A DNA stretch of 64,000 bases from an uncultured Vicinamibacteraceae bacterium (GTDB taxonomy: Bacteria > Acidobacteriota > Vicinamibacteria > Vicinamibacterales > UBA8438). Of this stretch, positions 37,948 through 39,378 are shown one piece after another. Below the pieces are notes generated by a model. It made no database searches, was not told where the DNA came from, and saw only the letters and a list, made by a program, of their open reading frames with translations. Positions within the stretch are counted from its first letter, which is position 1; each line of letters begins with the position of its first letter. The translations under genes were made by a program, and so were the position numbers. The stretch covers positions 22,264 to 86,263 of the forward strand of contig CAZWUJ010000007.1 in the NCBI GenBank assembly GCA_964636705.1, written 5' to 3'.

Positions 37948-39378
37948 TCAGACCAGAGCGACCTGCTCGGTGTCGGGTTCTGCTCAGCAGTACCACGGTT
38001 CGTTCAGATAGGGGGTCTCCGTCCGCTGCCGAACACGTGCGGGCCGCCGGCGTGGCGCGTCGCACCCCGCATCCGCCCGGGCGCGGATTTCGTCGTAGAC
38101 AGCTCGCCTGTCCGCCGTCAGGTCTCGGCCCACGATGGCCGCGACGTCATCCGCCAGCCGGTCCACTGCCGGGTCGGCATGACGCCAGGGATAGACGAGC
38201 TTGCGCCTGTCGAACAATCCGATCCGCCGCTGCACGTCGTCCAGTTCGAGCAGGGGGGAACCGGCAGTCACGAGCAGGCGGAGAGTCAACTGAATCGGCG
38301 CCACCTGATCCACCAGATCGAGCCGCTCGAGCTCCGCCAGCGAGTCGCGATAGGTCTCCAACGTCGTCCAGGGGGTGAACGCGATGAATGTCGGCGCGAG
38401 GGTCAAGCCGGCATCGCGGCAGAGTTGGACGGCGCGTTCCACGTCCCGCCGCGTGTGCCCTTTCCGGAGTCGCGCGAGCACGGCGTCGTCGAACGACTCC
38501 ACCGCGCTCGTCACGAAGAGGCATCCGGTCTCGCGGAGCCGCGGCAATCGATTCGCGTGCGCGATCAGGTGCTCCACCTTGATGGTGACGTCGTAGGTGA
38601 TGCCCGGACAGCGTTCCACCACCGCGTCGACGACCCGTATCGCGTGACCGACGCCATTGAAGAAATCGGGGTCGCCGAACGTGATGTGCCGCGCGCCACG
38701 CGCGACCTGTGCCTCGACGTCCGCCGCCACGACGTCCGAAGCGACGATCCGGAACCGCCCGCCATAGACCGGAACTACCGGACAGTGCCGGCACAGATGC
38801 CGGCAGCCTCGGCTTGCCTCCGTGTAGCCGGTGACGTGGCGCGAGCCGCCGAGCTGCAGCGTCGCGTAGCGATCCAGAGGCGGCAGGCCGTCCCGGCAGG
38901 GCGTGATGTGGTCAAGGCGTGGCAGGCCGCCGGATGTCCGGGCGCGGGCCCTACCGTCTTCCGACTCCCCGTCACTCGTCCCTTCCCGCGGGGCCGTCTC
39001 GCCGCGAGAATCCGAAGCTCCGTGATCCGCGACGCGCACCAAGTCGGCCTCGAACTCGCCGCCCAGGATGTGGCGGACCCCGAGTGACCGGAGATAGGGC
39101 GCGTTGAGCGGCGCGTACAACCCGTAGGCGCAAAGCTGGGCGTCCGGGTTGATTCGCCGGACGTGGCCAATCACTGGCGCGGCCAGCCGGGTGGCGGTGT
39201 GCATCGGGAGGTGGAACGCCACCAGATGCGCGTCGGACACGTCAGCGGCGTCGAACGATTGGCGCGACAGATCGACACAGGTAACGTCGTGACCGGCACG
39301 GCGCAACCACGCCGCGGGCGAAGCCAGACCGAACGGCTGCCGGCCCAGCTCGTACGTCGCGATCAGCGTGACGCTCAT
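37948..39378 (-). CDS. B12-binding-domain radical SAM protein with a C-terminal C-U-A-E-P tail; in-frame TGA (37986-37984) proposed as selenocysteine
   Basis: ATG at 39378 overlaps the symporter stop (ATGA). CRHLCRHC (CX3CX2C). The track ORF ends ...EPWYC-TGA. The next codons, GCA GAA CCC, give A-E-P, and the frame stays open to TGA at 37950-37948. Confidence 0.7.
37951..37974 (-). promoter_or_regulatory. SECIS-like hairpin downstream of the in-frame UGA
   Basis: The RNA reads GAC-A-CC-GAGC-[AGGUC]-GCUC-U-GG-UC. The apical loop contains GGUC, and its GGU falls 24-26 nt from the U of UGA. Confidence 0.5.

Follow-up and report, generated by a model that had tools for sequence, protein, structure and literature searches.

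The stretch of DNA analyzed here, called the window throughout, is a 64,000-nucleotide (nt) segment of contig CAZWUJ010000007.1 from an uncultured Vicinamibacteraceae bacterium of the phylum Acidobacteriota. The subject of this report is a gene on its minus strand that encodes a radical S-adenosylmethionine (SAM) protein and carries an in-frame TGA codon near its 3′ end. The reading frame starts with an ATG at 39378 and continues to ...T-P-Y-L-N-E-P-W-Y-C, where the called open reading frame (ORF) ends at the TGA. An earlier note, prepared from the letters of the window and a list of its ORFs, had read on through this codon, proposed that it specifies selenocysteine (Sec) and placed the actual stop at 37950-37948, 7 nt before the ATG of an ATP-grasp gene. 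Translation of the minus strand gave this frame, ...EPWYC-TGA-AEPDTEQVALV-TGA, with GCA GAA CCC GAC ACC GAG CAG GTC GCT CTG GTC as the codons 3′ of the first TGA. The features of the gene are the following.

37948..39378, minus strand: full-length CUAEP-tail radical SAM gene, predicted to encode a selenoprotein (from translation; 476 codons including Sec465, plus the stop).
38782..38805, minus strand: CxxxCxxC radical SAM [4Fe-4S] motif CRHLCRHC, residues 192-199 (C192, C196, C199).
37984..37986, minus strand: in-frame TGA at residue 465, directly after Cys464, read as Sec from comparison.
37951..37983, minus strand: 11-codon tail AEPDTEQVALV, which aligns with the tails of Cys homologues (...CCAEPNPEQVALV) and is missed by ORF callers.
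37951..37974, minus strand: hairpin of the selenocysteine insertion sequence (SECIS) type, with the core GAGC-AGGUC-GCUC at 37968-37956 and the loop at 37964-37960 (from RNAfold and family covariation).
37948..37950, minus strand: true stop TGA, followed after the 7 nt by the ATP-grasp ATG at 37940.

For profile searches the Sec position was written as Cys. The product matched NF040546, "CUAEP/CCAEP-tail radical SAM (seleno)protein", an equivalog-level NCBIfam family, with 607.4 bits against a curated cutoff of 500 (E 1.6e-182), and residues 3-474 aligned with profile positions 1-467 of 468. Because the match reaches position 467 of 468, the tail is part of the model, and the Sec-containing family with a CUAEP/CCAEP tail to which the earlier note referred does exist. 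Besides scoring above the cutoff over its full length, the protein contains the C-[U/C]-A-E-P motif with TGA at the second position and the CxxxCxxC motif. The CRHLCRHC cluster, also pointed out earlier, belongs to a protein matched by Pfam Radical_SAM (PF04055; E=1.8e-12, 48 bits), and its three cysteines are invariant in a 44-sequence alignment. By its sequence, the protein is an ordinary member of an already catalogued and biochemically uncharacterised enzyme family. The family has been listed as uncharacterised with a rare Cys-Sec (CU) motif (Haft, bioRxiv 10.1101/2022.07.06.499078), and this preprint was the only mention of it found in the searchable literature; radical SAM proteins are unmentioned in the main text of two recent bacterial selenoprotein resources. 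An antisense ORF (37897-39087, plus strand, 396 codons) overlaps the gene, and its signal of third-position minus second-position GC content (GC3 minus GC2) is stronger than that of the true frame. This antisense frame, favoured by GC3-based composition calling, was ruled out as the true gene by the 607-bit match to NF040546, which establishes the minus strand as the true one.

The codon that follows ...W-[YF]-C was read directly from the DNA at each of 80 homologous loci from species-representative genomes, which were mostly from Acidobacteriota (Vicinamibacterales, Terriglobia and Bryobacterales) with a few from Verrucomicrobiia, Chloroflexota and others. It was TGA at 63 of the 80 loci, TGC at 15 and TGT at two, the latter two groups making up 17 Cys forms; addition of the window to the 63 homologue loci gave a set of 64 TGA sequences. 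After every TGA the frame reads A/V-E-P-x-x-[EGD]-Q-[VL]-..., as in the Cys forms, whose CCAEPxPEQVALV tails are of the same kind as the tail of the window. What emerges is a classic Sec/Cys pair, and the AEP peptide, which the earlier note judged unlikely to follow a Cys-TGA by chance, is conserved in frame. When the 64 sequences are aligned without gaps, the codons for Ala, Glu and Pro after the TGA (GC-, GA- and CC-) show little or no change in their first two bases, and the variation is in the third. Mean column entropy at the three codon positions was 0.45, 0.55 and 1.21 for the 11 codons after the UGA, compared with 0.30, 0.15 and 1.06 for the 10 codons before it, and this codon-periodic pattern indicates that the tail is translated. 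At 44 loci with a short tail and a 5-nt hairpin loop, the tail stops at the equivalent codon (TGA, TAG or TAA) in all but L065, and the tails of the Terriglobia type extend further than the short form. A protein search returned thousands of relatives, among which those aligned at 97% coverage stop at ...EPWYC and those aligned at 99-100% coverage finish ...EPWYCCAEPNPEQVALV or similar. ORF calling does miss the tail, as had been claimed, the public and automatically called protein having 464 residues and the full product 476.

Several observations on the tails stand beside this result. A longer tail, CUAEPTRDQLVPIAKAKEA..., is found in copies of the Terriglobia or 'Acidiferrales' type and in some Verrucomicrobiia (loci L027, L029, L033, L039, L041, L046, L053, L059, L066-L069, L078 and L086), and in these copies the SECIS loop is AGUU, of 4 nt, and the stem is GGGACC/GGUCCC, shifted by one register from the Vicinamibacterales type. 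Three Cys forms finish a few residues past the motif, with CCAEPMEQF* (L038), CCAEPMESF* (L040) and CCAEPLPV* (L054), the asterisk marking the stop. The required part of the tail appears to be C-[C/U]-A-E-P alone. One locus labelled 'uncultured Bifidobacteriaceae' (L024, CAZCEL010000249.1) holds a typical Acidobacteriota-like pair of CCAEP radical SAM and ATP-grasp genes together with a POT fragment, and because of this mismatch between label and gene pair the label is probably a binning error.

Hereafter we count the U of the UGA as position 1. RNAfold of positions 12-40 of the window gave a hairpin with the pairs G13-C36, A14-U35, C15-G34 and C17-G33; next come a mismatch of C18 with U32 and the GAGC/GCUC stem that encloses the AGGUC loop, the GGU of which occupies positions 24-26. 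The hairpin that the earlier note had drawn at 37974-37951 is thus present with the same GAGC-AGGUC-GCUC core and the same position of GGU; its 'bulged U', or the C18/U32 mismatch, is peculiar to the window.

All 64 TGA sequences fold over positions 12-40 into a hairpin with the minimum-free-energy loop at about positions 23-27, and in most relatives the stem is perfect over 6-7 base pairs (bp). When counted in an anchored register, 58 of the 64 sequences have a 5′ arm that finishes at position 22, and the other six have one internal mismatch. The loop opens with A23-G24, of which G24 is invariant (64/64) and A23 is at least 90% conserved, and it occurs in three registers of 5, 4 or 6 nt. For the 5-nt-loop class (44 sequences, window included), 89% of the cells were paired, compared with 78.7% in column shuffles (0 of 500 reached the observed value) and 39-57% when the partners were slid. 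Individual pairs varied in a compensatory manner: pair 17-33 was CG in 27 sequences, AU in 14 and GC in one; pair 18-32 was AU in 27, GU in seven and GC in six; and pair 20-30, which was never unpaired, was AU in 35, GU in four, GC in three and CG in two. The 4-nt-loop class (19 sequences, Terriglobia-type) was 90% paired, with pair 18-31 being GC in 13 and AU in five. From one class to the other the stem shifts from GAGC/GCUC to GACC/GGUC, so that the peptide changes from E-Q-V-A-L to D-Q-L-V-P and pairing is kept.

The same comparison was extended to the 17 Cys forms, among which only L026, L047, L055 and L070 retain a 4-bp stem in the family register; a run of 4 bp in the 4-nt-loop register occurs in L085. 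Folding energies had a median of -10.8 kcal/mol for the TGA forms versus -5.2 kcal/mol for the Cys forms (Mann-Whitney p=2.7e-8, phylogeny not corrected for). A covariance model of the 25-nt hairpin, for which 43 other species and not the window supplied the sequences, was then used to search both strands of the window with filters off. The only significant match was at 37974-37950 on the minus strand (28.2 bits, E 1.2e-6), and the next best, at 11.6 bits, had no upstream TGA. Both the covariation and the match by a model built without the window indicate that the proposed hairpin is a family-conserved element. A bacterial SECIS is a hairpin of 5-6 bp located shortly after the UGA, with an invariant G in the loop (PMC4607533). 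The element found here lies at a fixed distance from the UGA, has an invariant loop G and compensatory changes in the stem, and is mostly lost in Cys homologues, and we regard this comparative evidence as decisive.

An alternative long-range helix pairing positions 5-11 with 27-33, preferred by RNAfold in some sequences, showed no covariation (76.3% paired versus 76.3% in shuffles) and was rejected. In the Bryobacterales Cys forms L026, L047 and L070, 4 bp of the hairpin (GAGC...GCUC) persist as a remnant, suggesting that Sec was converted to Cys recently. No candidates for other selenoprotein genes in the window were found among its in-frame abutting ORFs and the weaker matches of the covariance model.

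Several results weigh against decoding of the UGA as Sec. The hairpin of the window, with 4 perfect bp and the C/U mismatch, has a folding energy of -8.7 kcal/mol and is the ninth weakest of the 64. When its single-sequence fold was compared with shuffles, z ranged from +0.4 to -0.4 and 61-143 of 200 shuffles folded equally well. Single-sequence energy being uninformative, the argument was moved to the comparative analysis described above; the hairpin alone is not stable beyond shuffles, and it is conserved throughout the 64 TGA sequences. Phylogeny is not corrected for in the tests by shuffling and by rank on the hairpin, and the NF040546 score rests on U entered as C. Rfam gave no match, either at gathering thresholds on the whole window or at E up to 10 on 37850-38100, and this null is weak evidence, as Rfam may hold no model fitting short bacterial SECIS hairpins. 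No genes for the Sec machinery turned up either. ARAGORN found only tRNA-Pro and tRNA-Arg in the window and no tRNA-Sec in the 64-kb window or in 60 homologue loci; NCBIfam scans of 30 window ORFs gave no SelA, SelB or SelD; and tblastn with the E. coli SelA, SelB and SelD against the window and the 80 loci (1.36 Mb) gave nothing. This result indicates that the machinery is not linked to the radical SAM gene.

The alternative that survives these data best, which we nevertheless consider very unlikely, is that the UGA is read through without Sec, for example by a near-cognate Cys or Trp tRNA and stimulated by the hairpin, after loss of the Sec machinery in the lineage, giving a low yield of a protein that is not a selenoprotein. 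No Sec machinery turned up in the sequence searched and the hairpin of the window is among the weaker ones, as this explanation would have it. However, the hairpin has the position, the size and the invariant loop G of a SECIS of the SelB type and is lost where the codon is Cys, a pattern expected of Sec decoding, and in the absence of Sec a single TGA-to-TGC change would be strongly selected. In addition, at least one other species of Acidobacteriota is a documented Sec user (PMC12013277), which is support at the level of the lineage only.

Termination at the first TGA is less probable still. The protein would then end at Cys464 and the next 33 nt would be an untranslated spacer before the ATP-grasp gene, in agreement with the gene calls and the public databases, which hold exactly this 464-residue product, with the lack of Sec machinery in the window and with the unexceptional energy of the hairpin. 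A spacer, however, would not preserve the frame, the AEP...LV peptide or variation restricted to third positions over 63 species, and the tail aligns with its translated counterparts in the 17 Cys forms and is included in the NF040546 profile. Finally, the TGA could be a mistake of sequencing or assembly, or a nonsense mutation that recently made a pseudogene; only one base (TGC to TGA) would have to change, and the source is metagenomic. This explanation is refuted and keeps next to no probability. Exactly this truncated protein occurs on 8 independent contigs, and the 6 of them examined at the DNA level, which stem from six different sequencing runs, all have the same TGA and tail, so that the TGA is not a read error. 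TGA and tail also recur in 63 other species.

We therefore return to Sec decoding. It is very probable, on the comparisons made here, that the gene encodes a 476-residue member of the CUAEP/CCAEP-tail family in which the UGA at 37986-37984 is decoded as Sec by means of a SECIS hairpin, with a chemistry that we infer to be ArsL-like. The hairpin, located 13-36 nt after the UGA within the last codons of the tail and just before the true stop, would act as a bacterial SECIS. Through it, SelB would be recruited with Sec-tRNA(Sec) to a ribosome that has paused at this codon, so that decoding would depend on SelB and selenium would be incorporated in this organism. The second UGA, 36 nt further on, has no hairpin after it and would lead to termination. 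The product would have a Rossmann domain of the B12-binding type at its N terminus, a [4Fe-4S]/SAM core with the CxxxCxxC motif and a flexible C-terminal arm, ...W-Y-C-U-A-E-P....

The N-terminal domain was described in the earlier note as B12-binding-like. In Pfam, residues 5-82 matched B12-binding (PF02310) with 20.6 bits, below the cutoff of 32.1, and the fold of a homologue groups with radical SAM enzymes that have a B12 domain. No close relative by sequence was found among solved structures. The AlphaFold2 model used is that of a 61%-identical Cys homologue (P0068) and not of the window protein itself; its predicted local distance difference test score (pLDDT) is 85.5 and its predicted template modelling score (pTM) 0.86, with a confident core and low confidence in the last ~30 residues, which is consistent with a mobile, flexible arm. 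Foldseek matched this model to AprD4, TsrM, MgmA and OxsB with E values of 1e-18 to 1e-13 and template modelling (TM) scores of about 0.6. AprD4, the best of these fold matches, is not known to need cobalamin.

The radical SAM gene lies between two genes of the same strand, with which it forms an apparent operon.

39375..40850, minus strand: sodium:solute symporter, upstream (NCBIfam TIGR00813, E=3.4e-42); its stop overlaps the radical SAM start (ATGA, 39378-39375).
36627..37940, minus strand: ATP-grasp ligase of the L-amino-acid-ligase type, downstream (Pfam ATPgrasp_N, ATP-grasp_4 and LAL_C2).

An ATP-grasp gene is located directly downstream on the same strand at 56 of the 80 loci and within ~1 kb at five more; among the others, several contigs break off before this can be judged. 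This pairing spans Sec and Cys forms and different phyla. The upstream symporter has the same arrangement at 12 Vicinamibacterales loci. A gene for a POT/PTR2 peptide transporter is found upstream at 19 loci, on the opposite strand at 17 of them and on the same strand at two (L019 and L080). A YggX-type Fe(2+)-trafficking gene is present at 55 of the 80 loci, mostly on the opposite strand and immediately beyond the ATP-grasp gene, with eight of these on the same strand. The YggX-type gene of the window (22554-22883, plus strand) is ~14 kb from the ATP-grasp gene, and this distance indicates that the neighbourhood is rearranged in the window. At three Bryobacterales loci with Cys forms (L070, L073 and L047), genes for SAM-dependent methyltransferases lie downstream and no ATP-grasp ligase gene was found, an arrangement that recalls ArsL-ArsM.

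Next to the operon, at 24058-36608, the window contains a cluster that looks like one for metal or cofactor uptake. It includes a CobN/chelatase-H-like gene (24061-28122, minus strand) and a TonB-dependent receptor of the B12/siderophore type (29574-32234), followed by genes with PepSY_TM, DUF1800 and DUF1501 domains (from precomputed Pfam on identical copies in other contigs) and then by a protein with a TIGR03067 domain. The receptor gave weak matches, far below the cutoffs, to NCBIfam selenoprotein-type TonB models (CU, PCPU, PUIUD and FCYXU motifs). A molybdopterin oxidoreductase (20441-22576, plus strand) is related to the formate dehydrogenase alpha subunit and to dimethyl sulfoxide reductases and scored below all equivalog cutoffs. 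It was rejected as a Sec form, being a single uninterrupted ORF with an in-frame TGA (20438-20440) directly upstream, after which the homology begins. Elsewhere the window encodes ilvD, the acetolactate synthase large subunit and ilvC as housekeeping genes (7134-12276, minus strand), tRNA-Pro(TGG) at 6235-6311, tRNA-Arg(TCT) at 18125-18201, an ammonium transporter (16181-17461) and, at the edge of the window, RNase III (63175-63999).

With respect to function, the next best NCBIfam family after NF040546 is ArsL (NF040542), which matched residues 4-409 on profile positions 2-404 of 423 with 270.5 bits; all other families scored 53 bits or less. The C-As bond of arsinothricin is formed by ArsL, which cleaves SAM to a 3-amino-3-carboxypropyl radical; the cysteines of its C-terminal RCCLKC motif bind the As(III) that this radical attacks and are essential for the product and not for SAM cleavage (10.1101/2024.02.01.577332, 10.64898/2026.04.29.721666). 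By analogy with ArsL, the Cys-Sec dyad may serve as a substrate-capturing arm that would take up a substrate, most likely a soft metalloid or chalcogen, and deliver it to the radical SAM site. The co-transcribed ATP-grasp ligase would then process the resulting amino acid, and the linked transporter would move the substrate or the product. Some results argue against such a function: the ArsL score is below the cutoff of 450 bits, the tail reads YCUAEP in place of RCCLKC, no arsenic genes turned up among the window ORFs scanned with NCBIfam, and NF040546 has no characterised member. A more specific version of the analogy, to which we give a low probability, is that the CUAEP family is a non-canonical, ArsL-like radical SAM enzyme, that the dyad on its flexible tail holds As, Sb, Se or Te for attachment of the 3-amino-3-carboxypropyl group of SAM, that the ligase builds a dipeptide-like 'Trojan-horse' antimetabolite, and that the POT and sodium:solute symporter family transporters handle it. 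If true, this would mean a widespread and unrecognised organo-metalloid pathway in soil Acidobacteriota.

For annotation, the present result means that the deposited 464-residue protein lacks both Sec and the motif that gives the family its name, 12 residues being lost from the correct product of 476. In public databases, roughly four-fifths of the family is truncated in this way. Members of the family are abundant in soil Acidobacteriota; taken together, the position of the family as a sister of ArsL, its Cys-Sec tail and its tight pairing with an amino-acid ligase make a concrete hypothesis that is open to bench tests. As an RNA signal, the SECIS is compact and lies inside the last codons of the gene, where compensatory changes alter the peptide (EQVAL to DQLVP). 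NCBI already records the recoding, and current knowledge is not overturned by these results; they add a covarying, well-delimited SECIS consensus of the family, the conserved partnership with a ligase and the testable ArsL-like hypothesis.

We finally compared the gene with the known systems it resembles. It shares with the other members of NF040546 the CxxxCxxC core, the C-terminal W-Y-C-[U/C]-A-E-P tail and the alternation of Sec and Cys at the second position of the motif. It differs in a variable insert of 30 residues rich in Gly, Ser, Asp and Arg (~residues 120-150), a region that the model of the homologue shows as disordered, and in a SECIS stem slightly weaker than usual; otherwise there is no substantive difference. 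The class B (cobalamin-domain) radical SAM enzymes AprD4, TsrM, MgmA and OxsB share with the homologue model the layout of an N-terminal Rossmann domain and a radical SAM barrel, but sequence identity to them is 14-18% and the Pfam match to B12-binding is below threshold.

The closest parallel for the RNA element is the SECIS of E. coli fdhF, the sequence of which was confirmed against 5,419 E. coli genomes. Both are short hairpins inside the coding sequence, at a fixed distance from the UGA and with G-U in the loop. GCAGGUC at the top of the hairpin is common to the two, at positions 19-25 in fdhF and 21-27 in the window, and the loop GGU is at 22-24 and 24-26, respectively, that is, 2 nt further from the UGA in the window. 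Unlike fdhF, which has a bulged U17 on the 5′ side, the NF040546 family usually has a perfect stem of 6-7 bp, and the irregularity of the window is on the 3′ side. The family loop has 4-6 nt and starts with A-G, and the family hairpin covers the last codons and ends at the stop, so that it doubles as code for E/D-Q-V/L-A/V-L/P. The analogy with fdhF drawn in the earlier note finds support in the shared GCAGGUC and loop GGU and fails for the bulged U, which is not a feature of the family, most relatives having perfect stems.

Among characterised families the nearest is ArsL, the RCCLKC-tail enzyme of arsinothricin biosynthesis, which has the same architecture with vicinal cysteines on a C-terminal tail. 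The two differ in that the tail here carries a two-residue Cys-Sec dyad in CUAEP, whereas RCCLKC has three cysteines, and in that the partner here is an ATP-grasp ligase, whereas ArsL is accompanied by the methyltransferase ArsM and the permease ArsQ.

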